Source: a virus. From it: a DNA stretch of 64,000 bases. Below the pieces are notes generated by a model. That model was given only the letters and a program-made list of their open reading frames with translations, was not told where the DNA came from and did no database searches. Within the stretch, counting starts at the first letter, position 1; each line of letters opens with the position of its first letter. This document shows, piece by piece, positions 1,136-41,296 of the stretch. A program made the position numbers and the translations under genes. The stretch spans positions 14,309 through 78,308 of the IMG/VR virus record IMGVR_UViG_3300010400_000002; one strand, written 5' to 3'.

Positions 1136-2572
1136 GTGAAACAAGGTGGTTTAACCATATCTAAAGGTACTTTTGACAAGGACGCTATCACGACCCAAAA
1201 CTCGTTGTATGCGAACTCTCTTCAGTATCCTGAAATAGCGCGGACGCTCCTGATGTTGCAGCCTCAATACTCGCTGACCAACATCACAGCCCCGTTCATC
1301 CAGTCCGAAGAAATGGCTGTCGGCGATCTCAAATTTGAGTATCCCGTTATCGGACGTACAGACAAGCCTCTCACCTGCACCGGTACGGCTCCCACGGGCG
1401 ACGGCAAAGGCGACTCCATCGTTTACATCGAAGTGGAAGAAAATTATGCACACCCGACATGGGAATACAAACTTGGTGAAGATGTGCTCCTTCGTGTTGA
1501 CTCCACCGTTCTGGTGAAGAAAACGGTGAAAGGATACCTCGTTCCCTTCAAGATCATGGGCAACGACAATACCGATACCATCTCCTCTTCCGACATCTAC
1601 GCACAACGCAGACTCGGAAAGGTAGCCAACTCCAACACCGAATACTCCGAAAGGGGCTACGGCGCACAGCAGTATCCTGACTGGCTGGCGAATTACCTCA
1701 CCACCACTCGTAAGCAACAGACCGTTACCGGGGACGCAGCTACCTCAATCCTGTGGTTGCAGAAAGGTGACTACAAACTGTGGGCTATCGGAGCATCACC
1801 GGATGAACTGATGAATGAACTTGGTCAGCGTGACGGTGGATTTCTGTGGGACATGGAGAAAGACGCATGGTTTGGACGTACCACCATGGATGAAAATGGC
1901 ATTTGCACCAAAACAGATAATGGAAAGCCGTTGGTTCGTGGTAATGGATTTCTGCAGCAGATTCAAAGCAATATGACCGACGAGTTTTCGAAAGGTCAGT
2001 TGACACAGAAAATGTTGCTCAACCATATCCGTGACTTCAAGATTGCAGCCGGTATCAATGGTGGCAAGATTACCGTTCACACCGGCGCGGGTGGAGTAGC
2101 AGCATGGTATGAACTTCTCGCCAATTTCTACCTGCACCAAGGCAACCAGGGTATCGTTTATACCATGGACAATGGACGCAAGGTGACGGTGGGTGAAGAT
2201 ATTCCTACGGTGCATCTGCTTAACTGCGACATCACCATCTTCGAGAATCCGATTCTTACTGACCCATTGAACAATGACACCGATGATGAAGGGCTGTCAC
2301 TTCTTGGACAGTCATACTTCTTTGTTGATGGCAATACCACCATGGGAACCGATGGGAAGCAGATTCCTACCGTTCAGAAGATGGTCCGTAAAGCCAATGG
2401 CATTGACCGGAGCATGATCGTAAAGGTTGTTGACGGGATGGTAAACCCTGTTGACCCGATGCGCATTTTCGCTGCTTCTGCCCGTGATGGGTACACCATT
2501 GAGTGGCTGTCACAGTGGATGCTGACGTTACGCAAGATCAATGGAGTGTCAGCATTGTTCTGTACCGGATGA
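1136..2572 (+). CDS. major capsid protein (crAss-like, HK97 fold)
   Basis: 478 aa; position after the scaffold; motifs NYLTTTRKQQTVTGDA, DMEKDAWFG, GNGFLQQI and ITVHTGAGG resemble crAss-like MCPs. Confidence 0.8.
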   Translation: MKQGGLTISKGTFDKDAITTQNSLYANSLQYPEIARTLLMLQPQYSLTNITAPFIQSEEMAVGDLKFEYPVIGRTDKPLTCTGTAPTGDGKGDSIVYIEVEENYAHPTWEYKLGEDVLLRVDSTVLVKKTVKGYLVPFKIMGNDNTDTISSSDIYAQRRLGKVANSNTEYSERGYGAQQYPDWLANYLTTTRKQQTVTGDAATSILWLQKGDYKLWAIGASPDELMNELGQRDGGFLWDMEKDAWFGRTTMDENGICTKTDNGKPLVRGNGFLQQIQSNMTDEFSKGQLTQKMLLNHIRDFKIAAGINGGKITVHTGAGGVAAWYELLANFYLHQGNQGIVYTMDNGRKVTVGEDIPTVHLLNCDITIFENPILTDPLNNDTDDEGLSLLGQSYFFVDGNTTMGTDGKQIPTVQKMVRKANGIDRSMIVKVVDGMVNPVDPMRIFAASARDGYTIEWLSQWMLTLRKINGVSALFCTG

Positions 2573-13737: not shown

Positions 13738-16700
13738 TGCCAAATGGACAAGATATAAAATTACCAAAGGGAGCGACACTTGTTACTTCGCCTCCTGTGT
13801 CCGGCATTAAATTACCGAAAGGTGCAACGCTTATAAATAATAAATCCGATGAATCACAAGCGAAAGTGCCGCAAGTGCAAGAAGAAAAAAATGGTGTAAA
13901 TGCGCAACCAACAGACGCTACGGCAGCGAATAGCACTACGGAAGTACCGCAAAAAGAAAATAACAGCATTCCAAAAAATTTGGACAATCACATTAAGGCG
14001 CTTCAAAATGTTAAACAGAATATTAGCATCTACTCGCAATCAATTCCAAAGAATGCTCCATTAACATTACCTACCAAAGAACAAGAGGCGCAGATAGAAC
14101 CTGCAATTGTAGCAAGCGGAGGAAGAAATGCTACAATAGAGGATGATGGAAATATTATTGACTATAGTAAGCCAAACCAAATTACTCAGTGGGCACAATC
14201 GCAACTTGAAAAATTAAATGCGATTCCTGCATTTGATGGAACACCAACCGGAATGGGTATTCCTGATGTTACACCAATTACACCAATTATTGTTGCTGGT
14301 AAAGAAGTTGCAAAATCAATACTTGGAAGTATAAGCGGACTGGGCGAAGGAATTCAGCAGGCAACAAAAGGAAGTGAGGATATAAGAATACCATCTTCAC
14401 AAAATAGATTAGCTGCATTGGAACTTCCGGCAGGATTAGTAAAATCAGGATTTAGCGGATTAAGTTTGGTGGTGCCGCAAGTTGCTGCATTTAATCTTGG
14501 AATACAGGAAGCGGGAAATGTACTTCCTGAAAAATGGGTGCAAGCAGCGATGTCACCCGTGTCAACTATTTTGCAAGAAACACATGGCATAGTAAACTTC
14601 AATGGTAAAATTTATGATCTCGGAAATAGCGATGGAGTAAAGGCTGCTGCTGAATTAACTGACCTTGTATGGGATATATTTTTATTCAAGAAAGCGGAAG
14701 GGTTGGGTAAAAAGATAATTCATAATGAAGTTCTCACTCCTATTGAACAAGCTGAGGCGAATAAGATTATTGATGAAGGTATCAAAGATTTTGGAACACC
14801 ATTCAAGAAAGAAACTTTAAATAAAATTCCTCCTGAATTACCGGATGCAGTAAAGATAAAAGTTGCTCCATTGATTGAGGAGAAAGAAAAAATAATTGAT
14901 GGAAAGCAAAATATTGATGTTGGATTACATCAGTTAGAAGATCAAAAAATTGCTGACATCAATGAACAAATAATTGACCACGTTGCGCCACAACCATTTA
15001 CTGTTTCTGAATTTGAAGTTCACCCAAAAGAAAACATCTCTGCTGTTGTTGGTAAAGATGCTGAATACAAAGGAAAGATCGGTGTGATCGAAAAAGACGA
15101 TGAAGGCAATTTTGTTTTCAATGATGGCAAACGACAACAGATACTTCCGGTAGAAAATAAAGTAGAGCCGACAGAAACAATTTCCGACTCGGGATTGACA
15201 GTAGCCAAAGAGAAAATTTTCAAAGGAGAAATTCCGGTAATCGTGAAGCAAGGTGATGTTGAATATCGTAACAGGAAATACTTTGTATCGTTCACCAATG
15301 ATCCGAAAGATGCAACAGGAACGAGAGTATATGAATATACTAAGGACAAAAATTTACTTCCTGTTGGCAAGCCTAAAAAAGTCAATGAAATAATTCAACA
15401 GTTCAAAGACGAGAATGGAATTGCAACGAAGCAATCACCATTTGAATTTCCGAAGTCAAAAGAAGGAGAACCAACAATCTCAGAGGGTGACGGGACTGCT
15501 AAAGGGGAGTTGCAAGTTCCGTTATCCTCTGAACCTAAAACGACCGACAATGTTTCCGACAAACCACCAGTGTCAGATGAGCGACAACAGGAGTCAGCAC
15601 CAATCGGTGAAGCTCCCAGTGCCGAAACCGTCGTTAGCGAAGAGGTTAAAGCGCCGGAGGAAAAAGTAGATGAAGCCAAACAGTTCGCTATTGACATGGT
15701 GAACAATGATCTTGTTGAGCCAGGGAATACTTCTCGAAGTGAAATGACAATCAAGGGTAGTGGCAAGAAAGCAAGTGCGAACATCGAACCACGACTTGAC
15801 TTAGGAATGAGTAGTGCCGATAAGAACAAAGCTATTGCTGACATCAAAAAAGGAAACTACGAAACAGCACCAGCTAAGAAGTTAATTCAAAAGTTAAGTG
15901 AGTTCCATAAGAATGATGCGTTTGAGATGATACGCGGAACGGGTGGTAATGCTGATCGGTTTATGGAACTGACGCTCGAAGAAATGCGTCATCAGATTGA
16001 GGACATGAAAGAATTCAAGGCAGCCGAAGCCATGAAGGGAATACCGGATGAAGAAGCGCAGGCGATAGAAGATTTTGTCAGACCTTTTGAAGATGAGCAT
16101 GGAAACATTAATTTTGAGGAAGCGATAAAACATCTTGATGAAATCGGATGGACATTACCTGAAGGACATGAGGAAAGAATTTCGGACTTAATCAAAAAAA
16201 TAAAAGATGAAACAGGAAAGCGAGAAGTCCAAAAAGGCGAAGCAAATTCTTCTGGGTCTGTTAGCAGCGAAGCGCCGGAAGGAGTCATCAAAGATGAAAA
16301 GCCCCGCACAAGAGAACAAATCCTCCAAGAGTTAGAGCAGGCTAAAGCGGAGCACGCTACCGCAGAGAGTGACTACAACAAAGCCAAAGATGCTCTCGAC
16401 AAAAATCTACAAGGCAAGCAGGGTGATTTACTACAAGGTAATGAGCAGAAGTTGTTTGATGACACTTCTGAAATGAAGTCCAAAGCGGATGCAGCTAAGA
16501 AAACTCTTGACGCTGCAAAAGAAAAACTCGATGCCGCACAGAAGTTGGCTGATGATAATTTACCAGGGCAACAGGAGATACTTAGTCTTTCACATGGACT
16601 CACCCCTGAGCAAATAAATGAAAGTGCCCAATTCGTTGTTAAGTTTGAACGGGATGAATTACCTACCGATATAAAACTTGCAAAAGAACAACAAGAAAAA

Positions 16701-31743: not shown

Positions 31744-32145
31744 ATGGAGGAAGATCACTTAGAAGCAGCCGCGGCAGAAGAGAAATTTTCATTCGATCTT
31801 CTTTTGGCAGTGTTTCAGAAGTTGCCGGATGCGATAGTTATCCTTAATGAGGACAGAAAGATATTCAGGGTAAACCCACAGGCAGAGCTATTGTTTGGGT
31901 ATAATGAAATAGAATTAAAAAATAAACCCATTGAAATTCTTGTACCGGACTCACTGAAAGAACGCCACACTACGCATACTCAAACCTATGTAGATTCACC
32001 CTCATTACGTGCGATGGGAAGCGGTATTGAGTTGAAGGCAAAGAGAAAAAACGGAACAGAAATTCCTGTTGAAATAAATCTTAGTCCTGTGTCTACGGTT
32101 CGTGGTTTGTATGTGATTGCTGTAATCAGAAGAAAAGTAAAATAA
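31744..32145 (+). CDS. stand-alone PAS-domain protein (FixL-like)
   Basis: PDAIVILN..G-equivalent..VNPQAELLFGY..EL....IEILVP...RH...R.MG.G.EL.AKRKNG.EIPVEINLSP. Confidence 0.9.
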   Translation: MEEDHLEAAAAEEKFSFDLLLAVFQKLPDAIVILNEDRKIFRVNPQAELLFGYNEIELKNKPIEILVPDSLKERHTTHTQTYVDSPSLRAMGSGIELKAKRKNGTEIPVEINLSPVSTVRGLYVIAVIRRKVK

Positions 32146-32154
32146 GTTTCTTGC

Positions 32155-32496
32155 ATGATAAGTTCCGTTTGGATTGGAATTACGGCAATAGCACTTGGCT
32201 TGATAGGTGGTTATATCTCTTTGCGAGAACGATTAGTGAGATTGGAAGTGAAGATTGATGTATTCTGGCGTGACGTAAGTTATAGTTCTGCAAAACTTCT
32301 CCACAAACCGCACCCTGACAGTGCACGTATGGATTACCTCATAGATAAATACCTTGATGACAAACTGAATCAATCGGAGATAGTAGAATTCATTGGCAAA
32401 CTAAAGGAACTTTTTGAAAACAAAGACGCAGAAACAGCAGAAAGACAATCGGCAGCGATACTTCTTGCGGCACTGAGGCAGCGATACAAAGTGTAA
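32155..32496 (+). CDS. single-TM protein
   Basis: N-terminal TM followed by LRERLVRLEVKID coiled coil. Confidence 0.55.
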   Translation: MISSVWIGITAIALGLIGGYISLRERLVRLEVKIDVFWRDVSYSSAKLLHKPHPDSARMDYLIDKYLDDKLNQSEIVEFIGKLKELFENKDAETAERQSAAILLAALRQRYKV

Positions 32497-32525
32497 ATTT
32501 GATTACTAACTTTAAAACCAAAACT

Positions 32526-32771
32526 ATGAAACTACTTTCAATCTTACTCGCAATCTTCGCTGCACCATTCATGCAGGTAATCGGATTCTTCATCGTCATC
32601 TGTATTGTTGCATGGGCATTATGGTGGCTGCTTACCACGGTAATCATTCCTCCGGCTCCGGCACCGCCGCGACCATTTAAGAACCTGGGCTACATCATCT
32701 ATGTGATCGTGGTGGCACTTATGTTTATTTGGTGGGTCAGTTTCGCCTTCGGGTTGGGGATATTTAATTAG
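32526..32771 (+). CDS. small membrane protein (2-3 TM, Pro-rich loop)
   Basis: Hydrophobic helices flank PPAPAPPRP. Confidence 0.55.
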   Translation: MKLLSILLAIFAAPFMQVIGFFIVICIVAWALWWLLTTVIIPPAPAPPRPFKNLGYIIYVIVVALMFIWWVSFAFGLGIFN

Positions 32772-32807
32772 TGGTGGCAAATTTTTTAATCCTACATTTA
32801 CAATCTC

Positions 32808-33179
32808 ATGGAGAAAGAAAACATCATCATTCACGTTCACAATGAAGGAATCATTGAGATAGGAATGATGTTGCAGAAGATTCTCCACTCACAAGAAATT
32901 ATTCTTCAAACTCTAAAACAAATTCAAATGACAAACGAAGAACTCAAAAAAGGACTCGATGATGTAAAAGCTACTCTCGACAGTATCGGTACAGAGGTTG
33001 ACAAAGTTGCAACCGAAACCAACACATTGAATTCAAAGATCGCTGATCTCGAAACTCAAATCGGGAATCTCGGTACTGTACCACAAGAATTACAGGATGC
33101 TTTCAATGCGGTAAAAGATCAAGCCGGTGTTGTTGCATCTAAGGTTCAGGCGGTGGATGCTCTTGTGCCTGACGCGTAA
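32808..33179 (+). CDS. coiled-coil protein (start may be 32928)
   Basis: Heptad pattern; last + strand gene before the terminator. Confidence 0.55.
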   Translation: MEKENIIIHVHNEGIIEIGMMLQKILHSQEIILQTLKQIQMTNEELKKGLDDVKATLDSIGTEVDKVATETNTLNSKIADLETQIGNLGTVPQELQDAFNAVKDQAGVVASKVQAVDALVPDA

Positions 33180-33207
33180 AGATTGTGTGTGTATGTGTTT
33201 AGGAGAG

Positions 33208-33236
33208 CGGGGTGGCAAATCAGCACCCCGTTTTTT
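33208..33236 (+). terminator. intrinsic terminator of the late operon
   Basis: CGGGGTG-GCAAATCAG-CACCCCG followed by TTTTTT. Confidence 0.8.
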
Positions 33237-33300
33237 ATTGAGGCAACTCAATCTGAAAGAGAAGTTTCTTTTGCTTCGGCGCAGTATCAATTCGGGGGGC

Positions 33301-33333
33301 AAAAAAAATGGATGATGTTTAGTCACCCATTTT
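33301..33333 (-). terminator. intrinsic terminator closing the RAMP/array transcript
   Basis: Minus strand AAAATGGGTGA-CTAAACA-TCATCCATTTT-TTTT; the stem is complete (one G-U) only on the minus strand. Confidence 0.75.
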
Positions 33334-33340
33334 AAACAGT

Positions 33341-33935
33341 ACCATAGCGGTGCGAACCCAACCATGCCAGCGCCTAACAGAACCATATCCAACAATACCG
33401 AGCCTTACACGATCACACCATACCGGCTTTCCAGCCCGTTCCATGCCATACCTCTACTTACATCAGCCAACCATACAGGACTAAAGCAAGCCATTGCTAA
33501 CCTATCCCGACCATACCGACTCTTTCGAGTCCGTACCCAACCGAACCATACCGAACACAAGCGAACCGCGCCGACGCCGAAGCTAACAATACCATTCCCG
33601 ATACTACCGCGCTCGACATAAGCTGACCAATCCATACCAAACCGGAGATAATTTTCCCGTTCCTTACCATACTCAACCGAACATTACCTAAGCCAGCCGT
33701 ACCCTGCATAACCGAAGCTGACCGAACCGACTGAAATTAATCAGTCCGTACCACGCCGTACACTACCATTCCAAACAAAATTGAACCGTATCCCGCCATG
33801 CCGAATCGAACCTTACCACAACACACGGAACACCACCATGCACTACCATACCGGCTTTTAAAAAGCCCGCACCAAACCAAAACTCAGCTAACCGGACAAA
33901 ACCGAACTCCACATAACCCCGCCCCGGCAAACCGG
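33341..33935 (-). ncRNA. array of six GGY-NN pentamer tracts separated by hairpins (putative gapped guide RNAs, VIPR-like)
   Basis: 103 in-phase pentamers by hand count, 55 with exact GGY and most others one mismatch away; tracts 33871-33935, 33750-33854, 33661-33730, 33535-33645, 33440-33519, 33341-33426; five junction hairpins. Confidence 0.85.
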
Positions 33936-33938
33936 AAT

Positions 33939-34565
33939 TTAATCTTCAATGACATCATAATTCTTAATAGCAAATCTTCCATATGACGGTCTGAAATCTC
34001 CAACGCCGCACAATCTTCCTGCCTGTACCAACGTGTCAATAAACAATGCCACATCAATATACTCAGGCAACTGAATCATGAATTGACATTTGCAAGTCCA
34101 TCCTGATTTTAATGCAGGACGAGTGCGATTAATGCCTGACCGCTGAATAACAACACGCCGACGATCTTCATAATCCCATTCTTTCTTTCCTAAAGAGCAA
34201 AGTGGAGTTAATGAGATTACTCCTGCTTTGAATAAGTCCATTGCCGACTTACGAGGCGAGCGAGGGTCTTGTTTGAACTTTGATGCAGCGATACAACTCA
34301 TGCGAAAATATTCACCCGGGATACAGAGAAATCCTTTATCATCCCGATAGACGTAGCTTTCGAGATCATCAGTTTTTTTAGCAGCAGAATTTTTTTTCGC
34401 TTTCGCTTTTTCATCTACTGCCTCTGCATTCCATCGGTGAAACAGCATGTCGGCTGTACCTTGAAATGTTACTTCAATCATGAACGGTTCTGAATGTTCA
34501 ATGACTTTCTTTGCGCCGTTTGTTGGCTCACTCACATTCTTAGCGAGTGTTTTTGCTGTACTCAT
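33939..34565 (-). CDS. solo RAMP/Cas7-like protein (Vipr-like)
   Basis: RAMP beta1 (MIEVTFQGTADMLFH), motif-II-like GFLCIPGEYFRMSCIAA, RTRP, C-terminal Gly-rich loop AGRLCGVGDFRPSYGRF. Confidence 0.8.
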   Translation of the reverse strand: MSTAKTLAKNVSEPTNGAKKVIEHSEPFMIEVTFQGTADMLFHRWNAEAVDEKAKAKKNSAAKKTDDLESYVYRDDKGFLCIPGEYFRMSCIAASKFKQDPRSPRKSAMDLFKAGVISLTPLCSLGKKEWDYEDRRRVVIQRSGINRTRPALKSGWTCKCQFMIQLPEYIDVALFIDTLVQAGRLCGVGDFRPSYGRFAIKNYDVIED

Positions 34566-34577
34566 AATTATGAAATT

Positions 34578-34683
34578 AAAAAGCCCCTACGACAAATGGT
34601 TCAAACCTTCACCGTTAGGAGAAAGTACATCTGCTTTCAGGGCTGTTTGGAAATGTCGTGATTGACACGATGAAAGTTTGAAC
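34578..34683 (-). promoter_or_regulatory. structured 5' leader of the RAMP gene
   Basis: 17-bp stem GTTCAAACTTTCATCGT/ACGGTGAAGGTTTGAAC; enclosed ACGACA and AGCCC are complementary to TGTCGT and GGGCT just upstream of the start codon. Confidence 0.6.
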
Positions 34684-34687
34684 GAGG

Positions 34688-34720
34688 CAAATATAAGGTG
34701 AGGGTATTACTAAATGCAAA
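34688..34720 (-). promoter_or_regulatory. Bacteroidota housekeeping-sigma promoter
   Basis: TTTG-N21-TATATTTG matches the -33/-7 consensus. Confidence 0.75.
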
Positions 34721-34827
34721 TCAGGATATAAACATTCGATTCACATAAATTGTCCTTTGTCAATCCATAGTGGCTTGTCGCCGTTCATCATGGAAAGATA
34801 CTTCTGCTTAATTTTTTTGGCTCTCAT

Positions 34828-35424
34828 TTATATTTCAATTGAGTTATTCACTTCATTGCCTAATAAATCCCATCCCTCATATTCATAATTAGGGAACATT
34901 CCTTCACGTTCCCTTGCGAATAACTCCAATCGTTTAGGCTCTTCGAAAACCCTGTCAGTGACCTTCATTATCAATTCGCGGAAGTAATGCGGTTTCTGTG
35001 AGTGCTTACCAACTTTCTGTTCGTGAAGATCACCGAAGTCAAATTCCGAAGCATAGAAATTACAGGTTTGTTCTCTGAAGGCAGTAACATTTCCTTTAAT
35101 TCCTAATAGCAGATGTTCGCATTGACCACGAAACCAATATCCCATTCCCTGACTCATTACCTTTCGCCACGTCATCATTGTCTTATACTTAAATCCCCAC
35201 GCAGCCATTACCTCAAAGGCTTCCGGCAATAGCGGAACGGTTGCCCCTAAGAACAACACCGAATTTTTCTCAGAAGGAATTTGCATTGCCTTGATATCAT
35301 CAAGCGGCATCGTTTCATATTTTGTATGAGCGCCACTTCCTTCCGGCTGATCTCCATTAGTTCGCCCTGTCTTTTTATTCTCGTAAGACCACGGCGGATC
35401 TGCGTAAATGACATTGTACTTCAT
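34828..35424 (-). CDS. MT-A70 family N6-adenine methyltransferase
   Basis: VIYADPPW, WGFKYKT, GMGYWFRGQCEHLLLG, HSQKP, LELFAR. Confidence 0.9.
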   Translation of the reverse strand: MKYNVIYADPPWSYENKKTGRTNGDQPEGSGAHTKYETMPLDDIKAMQIPSEKNSVLFLGATVPLLPEAFEVMAAWGFKYKTMMTWRKVMSQGMGYWFRGQCEHLLLGIKGNVTAFREQTCNFYASEFDFGDLHEQKVGKHSQKPHYFRELIMKVTDRVFEEPKRLELFAREREGMFPNYEYEGWDLLGNEVNNSIEI

Positions 35425-35640
35425 GCCGAAAGTTTTTTCACTCTAATATCCACAATCCACCTGAAAAAGCACAGGGAGAGAATCTTAAATTTCCCGTCCT
35501 TACAGTGATGGACTCCGTGGACGAGGCTGAACTTTAGGATGGAGGGGTTGGGTAATAATTTCATGGTGTATATTTAGTGATCTTAAACGTAAAAAACTCC
35601 TTCCCCTTCGCCACGATCTCCTTCTCCACGACAAGCCGGA

Positions 35641-36378
35641 CTAACACACTTTCTTCTGAACATGAATACCATAAGAGTCCGTTATTTTATGGCATGGCTT
35701 ACATAATGTTAATCCGTTATCCACATCCCATAATAACTTACAGGAAAGAGCATCAATAGTGTCCTTCAAATTGAATTGATAGATAATATTTGCTAAACTT
35801 ATTTTATGATGGCATTCCAACCTAACATTATTTTTACCACAGTTTTGGCAAGTGAAATTATCTCTCTTATAAACACTCAATCTCCATTGATTATATTCAA
35901 CCAATCTTCTTATCTTATCTTTAATAATATTAAACCCTTTTCCCTTCCCATATCTCCAATGATTCGTTCCGCTAATTCTAAGCCTCGCTTCTAAAGTATA
36001 CTTTTTGTTTCGGGTGAACGCCTTTCCTTTCATAAAGGCACTGTGCGCTGGTCTCTGTCTACCTAATTTAAAAACATGATAGCATTGTTGAGAACAGAAT
36101 TTTCTTTTTAGTGATTTGGAAAATTTAATATCTCTATTACAGATGGAGCATTTTGATTTCACCTTTCCTTTTCCAAAATCATTAGTCATACATATGACGT
36201 CACAATATATCCGCTTACATTTCTTTTTACAGTACCTACAATTATTTAGAATAGTTATCTTTCTTTTTCTTCTTTTTCTTATTCTTGAGCATGTTTCCGA
36301 ACAAGTTGTTCTGTTATTAAGTTGACATGGAAATACTTTGAATGGTGCATTACAAACAATACAGTTCTTAGTAATCAT
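35641..36378 (-). CDS. HNH endonuclease with Zn-ribbon repeats
   Basis: Start MITKNC; CxxC repeats; WRLSVYKRDNFTCQNCG...LECHH...NGLTLCKPCH. Confidence 0.85.
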   Translation of the reverse strand: MITKNCIVCNAPFKVFPCQLNNRTTCSETCSRIRKRRKRKITILNNCRYCKKKCKRIYCDVICMTNDFGKGKVKSKCSICNRDIKFSKSLKRKFCSQQCYHVFKLGRQRPAHSAFMKGKAFTRNKKYTLEARLRISGTNHWRYGKGKGFNIIKDKIRRLVEYNQWRLSVYKRDNFTCQNCGKNNVRLECHHKISLANIIYQFNLKDTIDALSCKLLWDVDNGLTLCKPCHKITDSYGIHVQKKVC

Positions 36379-36379
36379 C

Positions 36380-36505
36380 TTAAAAAAGATAGCCGCTGGC
36401 AATGGTGGCTTATCAACACAATCCGTAGGGAAGGAGTTGCACCAAAGCAGCGGCGTTTTTTGTTGAAGATGTTCATGGATTGAATTGATAAGCATTGCAA
36501 ATTTA
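36380..36505 (-). promoter_or_regulatory. promoter box and structured leader of the HNH gene
   Basis: TAAATTTG (36498-36505); interleaved pairings GCTTATCAA/TTGATAAGC and GCCGCTG/CAGCGGC. Confidence 0.5.
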
Positions 36506-36506
36506 A

Positions 36507-37010
36507 TTAAACTTCTTTTATTTCAATTTTATTAATTGCAAACATCAACTTCTTCTTCAGTCGGTAAACTGCTAACTTCCTTGTCATCTTCGACTTTACA
36601 TCTTCAACAACCTTAACTCCTTTCTCAAAATAACTGAAGTCACTCCGATAATAGCACACCTGTTGACCATTGATTATTAGCGGAAATTCTTCCTGTAACT
36701 GCAAATCCGTAATCTCACGATTCTTCTGCATATCGGATAGAATCAAGTAACGGCGGTACTCTTTCTCCGAATCGAATTTCAATCCTTCTTTGGTGACTAC
36801 CTTCTTGTTTCGGTACTTGGGTAATTTCTTTGATTCCTGCACCCTTGCTTTAACGCTGTCAGGCGACTTCGCTTTGGAGATAGCAGCGGTGGGTTTGGGG
36901 CTTGCGTGGCTCAGAGGGCTTGTTTTGACGTTCTTTCTGTCCAACAAGATTTCATCGAGGGATTTGCCCTTGTGGTATTGGTGATACTCTTCAACCGACA
37001 ACACTGTCAT
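36507..37010 (-). CDS. DUF1064-family PD-(D/E)XK nuclease
   Basis: KYRNKK..G.KFDSEKE.RRY..L...I.DLQLQ..F, YRSDF, VVEDVKS, YRLKKKL. Confidence 0.8.
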   Translation of the reverse strand: MTVLSVEEYHQYHKGKSLDEILLDRKNVKTSPLSHASPKPTAAISKAKSPDSVKARVQESKKLPKYRNKKVVTKEGLKFDSEKEYRRYLILSDMQKNREITDLQLQEEFPLIINGQQVCYYRSDFSYFEKGVKVVEDVKSKMTRKLAVYRLKKKLMFAINKIEIKEV

Positions 37011-40442: not shown

Positions 40443-41296
40443 CGTGGTTTATCCTCCTCGGCTATTTGTGGTGCTCCATGAATCATTTCGTTCATTTGAT
40501 GGTATCGCTGCGTGGCTGAAGTAATCTGGGTTTCATAGTGAATGCCGTTCGTGGTAAGCGGTCTTGTTTCTTTTGGGGACTCCTCCTCCCAGCACCTTTG
40601 ATTAATCCATGTCTGTAGGTGCTTCCATTCCGGAATAAATTTTCCAGGAATTGCAGAATCTTGTTGGCGTCGGAAAATTTGGTTTTTTAAAGCTGGCTCA
40701 AGTAGCGGTAGGGCTGTTTCCCAATCCGCATGCTTTTTCTTGAAGTTGTCAAACTCGGTTTTATTGCCGCGTTTATTTCCTTCGTATAATTTTCGGAAAC
40801 TATCAAACACTATTTCACTATTATCTAATCTATTCTTATCTAATCTATTCTTATGTTGCCGTTCCGTTGTCCCTTCCGTTGCAGTTCCGTTGGCAACGGA
40901 ATTTTCAGTATTATTATTTTCCGTTGAATTATATTGTTTTTTTCTTTTTTCGGCACTTTTTTCTCCTGCCTTCTTTGCAGACTCCCATGTTTTCAATCTC
41001 TTTTGAAGTCCTCTTGAAGTGAATTTGCCCCGAAACTCCTGAAACAAATCTATACGGATTGCATCCCGATACCATGTTAAAAAACGCGGTTCGTCCTTAC
41101 ATCCAATAGTTCCACAAAGCATCTGTAAATCGCCGTCTGTGCTGCTCCAAGAATAGTCCTCTTGGTTGCGCAGAACTTCAATCACATCCCAATAAATTCC
41201 CTTTGCCCAGTGGGTATGTATTTGCACCATCTTGAGGAGTTTTAGATCCCTCCCTGCGTTTGATTCGTGCCTGAACCAGTATGAGTCTGCAGCCAT
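40439..41296 (-). CDS. putative replication initiator (DUF4373/Lin1244-like N-terminus)
   Basis: YWFRHESNA..D.KL...GIYW.VIE.L N-terminus; FDSFRKLY and HLQTWINQRCWEEE C-terminus. Confidence 0.7.
   Translation of the reverse strand: MAADSYWFRHESNAGRDLKLLKMVQIHTHWAKGIYWDVIEVLRNQEDYSWSSTDGDLQMLCGTIGCKDEPRFLTWYRDAIRIDLFQEFRGKFTSRGLQKRLKTWESAKKAGEKSAEKRKKQYNSTENNNTENSVANGTATEGTTERQHKNRLDKNRLDNSEIVFDSFRKLYEGNKRGNKTEFDNFKKKHADWETALPLLEPALKNQIFRRQQDSAIPGKFIPEWKHLQTWINQRCWEEESPKETRPLTTNGIHYETQITSATQRYHQMNEMIHGAPQIAEEDKPR

Follow-up and report, generated by a model that had tools for sequence, protein, structure and literature searches.

VIPR, a CRISPR-like RNA-guided gene silencer of phages, was first described in 2026 (bioRxiv 10.64898/2026.04.26.720920, 10.64898/2026.04.26.720927 and 10.64898/2026.10.15.759431; hereafter the VIPR preprints). 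According to these reports, a VIPR system is composed of a minimal RAMP protein, Vipr, and of vrRNAs, each made up of 9–16 GGY/NN pentamers and a 3' tail. One Vipr protomer occupies each repeat, burying GGY and presenting NN for pairing with double-stranded DNA (dsDNA), in which every third target base is left unpaired (the 1-nt skip rule). Natural targets lie on either strand and mostly in coding sequences, where the skipped base is the wobble position, and the outcome of targeting is transcriptional silencing. The targets published so far comprise satellites, prophage regulators and other VIPR loci, host defence genes not being among them; in one case, a satellite recombinase is covered by a vrRNA at its catalytic core, a position that the authors read as escape-proofing. 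In the case of Escherichia phage SUSP1, which carries a type II VIPR system, convergent targeting was reported, and in the structure of its Vipr the bases G1, G2 and Y3 are each read specifically (VIPR preprints). Here, a 64,000-nt stretch of the IMG/VR virus record IMGVR_UViG_3300010400_000002 (positions 14,309 to 78,308; hereafter the window) was analysed, in which a gene for a Vipr homologue adjoins an array of pentamers. We consider it about 80% probable that one tract of this array, tract 3, is a VIPR guide specifying the HExxH segment of a gene family that encodes proteins with an Xre-type helix-turn-helix (HTH) and an ImmA/IrrE (M78) peptidase.

The vipr homologue and its pentamer array

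The vipr open reading frame (ORF) of the window matches phrog_4652, a family of unknown function, and is without a Pfam family. A profile built from 70 of its homologues, however, matches the entry 36pp of the PDB (36pp_D, "SUSP1 Vipr protein") with an E value of 3.5e-18 over positions 32–205 of 212, and the single window sequence finds the same protein with an E value of 3.1e-5 and with the G-loop aligned, the two being ~28% identical over the aligned C-terminal 74 residues. The AlphaFold2 model of the window Vipr has a predicted local distance difference test (pLDDT) value of 93, and the Foldseek search with this model placed at the top the Csm3/Cas7 proteins of type III-A and type VII systems (probability 1.0, E ~1e-7, template modelling (TM) scores of 0.5–0.56), the sequence identity to CRISPR backbone subunits being 9–14%. 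The residues which contact GGY in SUSP1 Vipr, namely R138, D177, W178, R179 and C173, align to R149, D190, F191, R192 and C186 of the window protein. Among the 70 homologues, conservation is 90% or higher at R149, D190 and R192 and complete at P150, while the residue corresponding to W178 of SUSP1, F191, is also aromatic; both the R-P of the thumb and the D-(W/F)-R of the G-loop are kept in the window Vipr. Because the gene adjacent to the array is a homologue of SUSP1 Vipr with a Cas7/Csm3-like fold, the locus is, as judged from its sequence, a VIPR system, and tract 3 is one of its guides.

At a cut-off of E≤1e-3 the Vipr family comprises 6,629 clusters; at 50% identity it has 1,056 representatives. 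The closest relatives of the window protein are 81–85% identical to it. A period-5 array lies directly beside the vipr homologue in 18 of 19 related viral contigs (L001–L019), and where such arrays are strong they are G-rich (GGT/GGC) on the coding strand of vipr. The array may be situated upstream of the gene (e.g. L002, L007, L014, L018), downstream of it (L009, L019 and the window) or on both sides (L006, L011, L015, L017). In the arrays of 10 related loci the consensus triplet is GGT/GGC, with the NN positions taking all or nearly all of the 16 dinucleotides. The only Vipr homologue in the collection of cultured/deposited phages, 65% identical, was found in Phage DSL-LC04 (L116; OR003939.1, 22429-23046), where the gene is labelled "helix-turn-helix transcriptional regulator"; this is probably a misannotated vipr gene. 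A megablast search of positions 32000–36000 of the window against cultured phages gave no match.

The array of the window (Table 1) is located between convergent gene blocks, a few bases past the stop codon of vipr, with no ORF in between. Its + strand is a run of ~120 consecutive RCC-NN pentamers with few register slips, which corresponds to GGY-NN on the minus strand. One-base slips of the register are seen at 33371 and 33575. The identity of the region 33331–33930 with itself is 0.41–0.42 at lags of 5, 10 and 15, as against 0.20–0.22 at lags of 2, 3, 7 and 8, and the sliding period-5 score reaches 0.14–0.28 in the array, values which exceed the mean over the 64 kb (-0.002, standard deviation 0.038) by more than 3.5 to 7 standard deviations. 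This rhythm is far beyond chance. The sole other stretch of the 64 kb above the period-5 threshold, at 40751–40975 on the minus strand, is much weaker; it is made of AACGG-type repeats in an apparent coding region with many Asn, Gly and Thr codons and is probably not a vrRNA.

The tracts of the array are divided by five separators, all of which align as GGN-(A/G)CGG-hairpin-(C)GGU with hairpin stems of 4–7 bp, as seen from the alignment and from RNA folding. The search of Rfam returned no relevant family for the region, and no CRISPR repeat-spacer array was found in it, the 5-nt rhythm being the sole repeat. The scan for sigma-70 promoters and terminators gave nothing convincing, and the hairpin followed by eight U residues at the end of the array, which is likely the terminator of the vipr-array transcript, was not called by the terminator scan. 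The candidate promoter upstream of vipr was found as a match to TTTG-N21-TATATTTG, which we take to be the Bacteroidota promoter consensus. The count of this pattern in the window is not above chance, so that the position alone speaks for the candidate.

Tract 3 and a family of Xre-ImmA/IrrE genes

In the register 33664, 33669 ... 33729 of the + strand, the NN dinucleotides of tract 3 are TT AT CA GA TT TA CA GT CT TA GA TG GA (GA), and the scaffold triplets on the same strand are ACC ACT ACC ACA ACC AGC GCC ACC GCA ACC AGC ACC ACC. The first-pass annotation, made from the letters of the window, had listed these dinucleotides at 33661–33730, and they are found there exactly, spaced by triplets of the RCC type. 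It had counted 14 units in the tract, of which 13 stand in register; the fourteenth, GA at 33729–30, is doubtful, as it falls into the stem of the hairpin between tracts and, following a 4-nt unit at 33726, is out of register. At the other end, the GT at 33659–60, left of tract 3, is part of the constant ACGG plus hairpin element that is present after every tract and is likely the tail of the vrRNA or a processing signal. The reading applied in that annotation, with NN as codon positions 1 and 2, the wobble base skipped and the tract serving as a guide, is the same as the published 1-nt skip code of VIPR.

Read by this code, tract 3 had been taken to spell the HExxH active site of an ImmA/IrrE-like peptidase. 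A string compatible with HExxH (CA GA NN NN CA) occurs twice in the array, and since 5% of shuffles of the array dinucleotides yield at least one, the string by itself is only mildly unusual. The second run, CA GA AT GA CA, belongs to tract 4 (33533–33568), and the corresponding 8-unit guide scored at the null level on L092, a locus of the family described below. A guide similar to tract 3 was not found in the arrays of the relatives, the best value being 18/26.

For the target searches, the match was scored as the number of guide NN bases paired (of 26 for 13 units, or of 28 for 14), with every third base skipped. A 10-unit seed found seven matches among the JGI metagenomes, one of which, L092:7514-7552, extends to 25 of the 26 guide bases and lies in frame in a 400-aa ORF, where it reads LMHELYHVLYDFD. 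As a control at the level of the family, nine members were taken from viral contigs without regard to the guide, and in all nine the best match of tract 3 (21–23/26) was located at the homologous HExxH site. Across six non-redundant loci the guide pairs with 21–25 of 26 bases at this same site (96% in L092 and 81–88% in the five others, against a criterion of at least 80% for natural VIPR targets), always in frame and with the skipped base at the wobble position. Meanwhile 4000 permuted or randomly drawn guides reached at most 21/26 over the six family loci, none attaining 22, and the summed score over these loci was 135 for the real guide versus 98–100 ± 2–3 for the shuffled ones. At the level of the family the assignment of the first-pass annotation is thus borne out. 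Of all the tracts, only tract 3 matches the L092 locus.

In a sister subfamily, present in Hymenobacter, Pontibacter, Chitinophaga, Larkinella and others, the consensus is LIHELYHVLFDWEE. It departs from the 14-residue decode at a single residue and settles for H and E the H/Q and D/E ambiguity that had been attached to the decode. Several members of this subfamily share 13 of the 14 decoded residues, W, E and E among them (12 of the 13 scored); F in place of Y, a change of one base, is the only difference. It had also been proposed that the guide sits on the least mutable codons of its target, and indeed the H, E, H and D of the motif are invariant in 240 proteins of the family. The mean pairwise DNA identity within the footprint is 0.72, 0.91 and 0.47 at codon positions 1, 2 and 3, respectively; hence the skipped bases are the variable ones. 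Furthermore, the first unit of the family match is TT, exactly at the end of the constant ACGG-hairpin element, and the last is unit 13 or 14, whereas the AC unit beside the hairpin matches the preceding codon in no member of the family, so that the 3' boundary of the guide is fixed independently.

The phage itself offers no such site. In its own 78-kb genome the best score of tract 3 is 19/28, which is inside the shuffled null (mean 18.9, maximum 23); the exact 13-unit pattern has no match there at three or fewer mismatches, and no M78 gene was found in the phage.

Shorter seeds proved less informative. In IMG/VR, 8-unit seeds gave 71 matches, with a best extension of 23/28, which is the chance level. 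Among the 58 matches of the first 8-unit seed, 18 contained in-frame stops, 32 were other variants (mostly Gln) and one was an HExxH in a long open frame. Q/D variants in unrelated genes had been named beforehand as the outcome that would speak against the reading of tract 3, and the 8-unit seeds did return mostly variants of this kind, but such variants are also expected by chance from short seeds in a collection of the size of IMG/VR. One of the matches at 23/28 lies in a 139-aa ORF of a 105-kb viral contig (L049:2741-3160, minus strand), which reads LIHELYHVL. This is a match at the chance level, and the ORF, with sub-threshold metallopeptidase scores (DUF6782, SprT-like, M78), is possibly a minimal zincin. 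The only match in GTDB to the 10-unit pattern of units 4–13 (L098) was rejected as a target because it lies in an unrelated ORF; the phylum to which L098 belongs has homologues of 20–25% identity only.

The 400-aa product of the L092 ORF carries a weak Cro/C1 HTH at its N-terminus. Its homologues, with 50–58% identity, are named ImmA/IrrE family metallo-endopeptidase, Zn-dependent peptidase ImmA (M78) or HigA-like, and the named sources are all Bacteroidota (Flavobacterium, Chryseobacterium, Sphingobacterium, Chitinophagales, Tenacibaculum and others). The Peptidase_M78 annotation that had been suggested as a check was recovered on these homologues: of 32 aligned members, only nine carry PF06114 at E≤0.01 (the best at 2.4e-7), and many homologues have it as a precomputed assignment. 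The best-matching gene itself (P0271) remains below this threshold, its membership being established through the 50–58% identical homologues, and NCBIfam gave no match for the target protein. The PADLOC search assigned the L092 ORF to PD-Lambda-2_B (E 1.4e-21, residues 53–341) and, weakly, to RosmerTA RmrA.

The Xre-ImmA gene always precedes a co-oriented gene of ~155–220 aa (Table 1). This partner has no PADLOC match in L092 and no Pfam family shared by the four other loci (P63C was detected in L115 only). In three of five non-redundant viral contigs (L108, L109, L115) the gene pair adjoins a tyrosine integrase of the Bacteroidota type near the end of the contig, in a fourth it is found beside an Eco57I-type methylase, and relatives of the family reside on plasmids of Pontibacter, Hymenobacter, Persicobacter and Bacteroides. 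As the gene is found next to integrases and has relatives on plasmids, the Xre-ImmA family, which occurs on Bacteroidota chromosomes as well, would thus appear to be cargo or a regulator of integrative/mobile elements.

Table 1. Positions of the features of the vipr locus (window coordinates) and of the partner genes in the target family loci (coordinates of the contig named)
Feature	Position	Strand	Basis
vipr gene, 208-aa RAMP/Cas7-like Vipr protein	33939..34565	minus	PDB 36pp homology, AlphaFold2 model, Foldseek
Candidate Bacteroidota-type promoter, TTTG-N21-TATATTTG, ~120 nt upstream of vipr start	34688..34720	minus	pattern match
vrRNA array, ~117–120 GGY-NN pentamers in about six tracts with short hairpins between	33336..33935	minus (strand of vipr)	periodicity, unit chain, unit composition
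Tract 3, one predicted guide	33664..33730	minus	13 in-register GGY-NN units (33664–33725) and a doubtful 14th NN (33729–30)
Constant element 3' of tract 3 in the RNA, GGA-AC-GGG and short hairpin	33640..33663	minus	separator alignment, fold
Hairpin between tracts 2 and 3, GACUGA/UCAGUC stem with 6-nt loop	33731..33749	minus	fold, separator alignment
Likely terminator of the vipr-array transcript, hairpin and eight U at array end	33300..33335	minus	read from sequence
Partner gene, L092	7927-8469	same as Xre-ImmA gene	
Partner gene, L107	4154-4639	same as Xre-ImmA gene	
Partner gene, L108	4103-4591	same as Xre-ImmA gene	
Partner gene, L109	3947-4411	same as Xre-ImmA gene	
Partner gene, L115	4209-4874	same as Xre-ImmA gene	

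Competing explanations and proposed mechanism

Several observations weigh against the assignment of tract 3 to the Xre-ImmA family. The exact 13-unit pattern, the search string proposed in the first-pass annotation, where a lack of matches had been named as a refuting outcome, is absent from IMG/VR, from 185,579 GTDB genomes and from 241 million JGI metagenome records, and an 11-unit pattern ending in TG-GA is absent from IMG/VR. The best DNA match comes from a single contig, L092, with ~0.03 such matches estimated to be expected by chance given seven seeds, and the family matches of 81–88% are one conserved motif seen repeatedly rather than independent targets. The other tracts score at the null level against the ImmA loci and their flanks and, unlike what was reported for SUSP1, do not converge on the same gene or its neighbours. 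Among the scaffold triplets of tract 3, six of 14 are not GGY (GCU twice, UGC, UGU, AGU and GGA). The array as a whole is unusually degenerate: 53 of its 112 five-base units (47%) have GGY, versus 74%, 77% and 95% in the related phages L002, L014 and L018, and the scaffolds TGT, GCT, GGA and GAT are frequent, so the loading of Vipr may be impaired at some units. Neither was a vap-like accessory gene found, there being no neighbour common to 13 related loci and none of their neighbours in this phage. Finally, the look-up of public runs revealed no RNA run that contains the locus and a single DNA run that does, a soil metagenome. The contigs of this soil run, which may be the source of the record, yielded only a 42-base fragment when compared with the L092 gene pair at 80% likeness. 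As regards the other tracts, 10-unit sub-patterns of tracts 4 and 5 had no match in IMG/VR.

The low share of GGY may mean either that the array is decaying or that the scaffold rule is relaxed in this clade. If the former holds, tract 3 could be a retired guide and its match a fossil, no longer loaded or without a target in current hosts. In favour of this, GGY is left in 8 of 14 units of the tract and in 47% of the array in place of the 74–95% of related phages, each of G1, G2 and Y3 is read specifically in the Vipr structure (VIPR preprints), and no perfect target was found in IMG/VR, GTDB or the JGI metagenomes. Neutral decay, however, would have altered the NN positions as much as the scaffolds, whereas the 26 NN bases spell the family motif without interruption and with no more than one or two differences from real genes; the vipr gene, too, is intact and conserved. 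We therefore regard a retired guide as unlikely, though it is the strongest of the alternatives. The likeness to ImmA/IrrE could also be coincidental, tract 3 being a genuine vrRNA whose real target lies outside the databases. The unmatched 13-unit pattern, the 5% of shuffled arrays that hold an HExxH-compatible string, the 8-unit seeds, whose matches in IMG/VR fall mainly into unrelated DNA as Q or stop variants, and the 23/28 attained in the unrelated zincin-like ORF of L049, a value at the chance level for a collection of this size, would all be in keeping with a coincidence. What makes it quite improbable is that the match reaches past HExxH into V-L-(Y/F)-D-W-(D/E)-(E), that none of the 4000 shuffled guides scored 22/26 whereas the real one scores 21–25 at the same site of six loci, that the skipped bases are wobble positions, that the match starts exactly at the end of the constant tail element, and that the peptidase family had been named from the sequence before any search.

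It is harder still to see the pentamers not as a guide but as a structural or protein-binding element, be it an RNA sponge of the TRAP type (triplet plus spacer), a C-rich site at which Rho would load on the + strand, or G-quadruplex DNA. The layout of triplets with 2-nt spacers, the G-poor + strand and the lack of an Rfam family would suit such elements, but the gene next to the array encodes a Vipr homologue in which the residues that bind GGY are conserved, 18 of 19 relatives keep an array beside vipr, with the strand of the gene being the G-rich one where the array is strong, and a wobble-aligned match to one gene family is predicted by no model of this sort; the probability left to it is very small. 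Readings of the array as TRAP-like RNA, a Rho rut site, a G-quadruplex or i-motif and Chi-like arrays, as well as T-box-like pairing with the CCA ends of tRNA and templates of diversity-generating retroelements or retrons, were dropped since the neighbouring gene is a Vipr homologue.

The reading of tract 3 as a guide against the Xre-ImmA family suggests the following course of events, for which filament formation, the skip rule and silencing are taken from the VIPR preprints, while the homology and fold of Vipr, the array, the match of the code to the family and the lack of self-targets come from the present analysis; the expression of the array, the host and the effect of silencing we infer. 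The array would be transcribed from the minus strand together with vipr or just after it. Vipr protomers would then assemble on the RNA, one per pentamer, each sequestering GGY and presenting the two bases that follow, and the 13 (perhaps 14) dinucleotides would pair with dsDNA, every third base being skipped. The site specified in this way would be the coding strand of L-(I/M)-H-E-L-Y-H-V-L-(Y/F)-D-W-(D/E), the zinc-binding HExxH segment, and owing to the skipping of the wobble base the guide would read, in the least mutable codons, only those bases that determine the amino acid. Once bound, it would block the transcription of the Xre-ImmA gene and of the ~155–220-aa gene that follows it.

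The benefit of such silencing may be sought in two directions. To silence the switch of a rival element would fit the published biology of VIPR, while a defence role of the target would extend it. In the PD-lambda-2 system of E. coli, which provides abortive infection and comprises three genes, namely HigB-like A, Xre-peptidase B and P4-antitoxin-like C (Vassallo et al. 2022, PMC9519451), the B protein is the toxic effector. By analogy, the guide might serve as RNA-guided anti-defence, silencing a PD-lambda-2B-like toxin-antitoxin/abortive-infection Xre-ImmA module of a Bacteroidota host or of its integrated elements; this proposal is a tentative one, and we hold it to be rather less probable than not. 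If it were true, the placement of the guide on catalytic-motif codons would mean that escape mutations disable the defence itself.

Phage, host and comparison with known systems

The record from which the window was taken is a 78,308-bp IMG/VR virus with direct terminal repeats. Its major head protein (window 1136–2572, + strand, 478 aa) shares 23–25% identity with the head proteins of crAss-like phages from human faeces, and on this ground the phage may belong to Crassvirales as a distant environmental member. A soil Bacteroidota host is suggested by the head protein, the soil origin of the only public run containing the locus, the candidate promoter and the taxonomy of the target family, which occurs in soil Bacteroidota, none of them being proof. 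Upstream of vipr, genes for an MT-A70 DNA methyltransferase (PF05063, E 4.7e-19), an HNH endonuclease and a Holliday-junction resolvase are found on the minus strand (window 34828–37010), the methyltransferase being the immediate neighbour. On the other side, where the + strand block ends, a stand-alone 133-aa PAS-domain protein (window 31744–32145; PF00989, E 3.9e-13) is encoded among small genes.

One must bear in mind that the natural targets of VIPR have so far been worked out for a few proteobacterial clades only. The locus described here places VIPR in a soil phage, probably a crAss-like one that infects Bacteroidota, and the predicted target would represent a new class, the Xre-ImmA/IrrE module of mobile elements, which resembles a known defence component. 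With the published code, the sequence is sufficient for recovering a target family, also where the databases lack the true target. The fact that both the code and the target family were first read from the letters of the array suggests that such arrays can be decoded by eye.

The predicted target resembles the B component of PD-lambda-2 in having an N-terminal HTH of the Cro/C1 type and a C-terminal HExxH peptidase in a protein of ~400 aa. It differs from that system in that only the B-like component is recognised, no HigB-like ORF being seen upstream, and from ImmR/ImmA in that the HTH is fused to the peptidase, whereas ImmR and ImmA are separate proteins. With the Cas7, Csm3 and Cmr4 subunits of class 1 CRISPR systems, Vipr shares the RAMP fold with its RRM core, the G-loop and the thumb, as well as one protomer per guide repeat and the periodic flipping of bases, the latter two known from the VIPR preprints. 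The class 1 CRISPR guide, however, has a period of 6 with one base flipped, in contrast to the period of 5, the three sequestered bases and the gapped target pairing of VIPR, and the window is without a repeat-spacer array or other cas genes, the neighbours of the locus being the methyltransferase, the HNH endonuclease and the resolvase.

In comparison with SUSP1, whose tail is a pseudoknot, the likely tail following each tract of the window is a short hairpin flanked by ACGG and CGGU, a recognisable vap gene (usual in VIPR, yet not universal) is missing, the array is one continuous run of ~600 nt located 3' of vipr with many degenerate scaffolds, and the host phylum is probably Bacteroidota. 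In addition, an Xre-ImmA peptidase target such as the one predicted here is not mentioned in the VIPR preprints. The two systems also have features in common. The RAMP homologue has the D-(W/F)-R of the G-loop and the R-P of the thumb, and it adjoins a GGY-NN array on its own strand in which NN is hypervariable. The tracts have 13–14 units, which is inside the published range of 9–16, and are followed by a constant structured 3' element that may correspond to the tail; no self-targeting is seen. The wobble-aligned 1-nt-skip match lies at a catalytic motif, as was described for the satellite recombinase of SUSP1, and tract 3 would add a second natural case in which a guide lies on the codons of a catalytic motif and skips their wobble bases.

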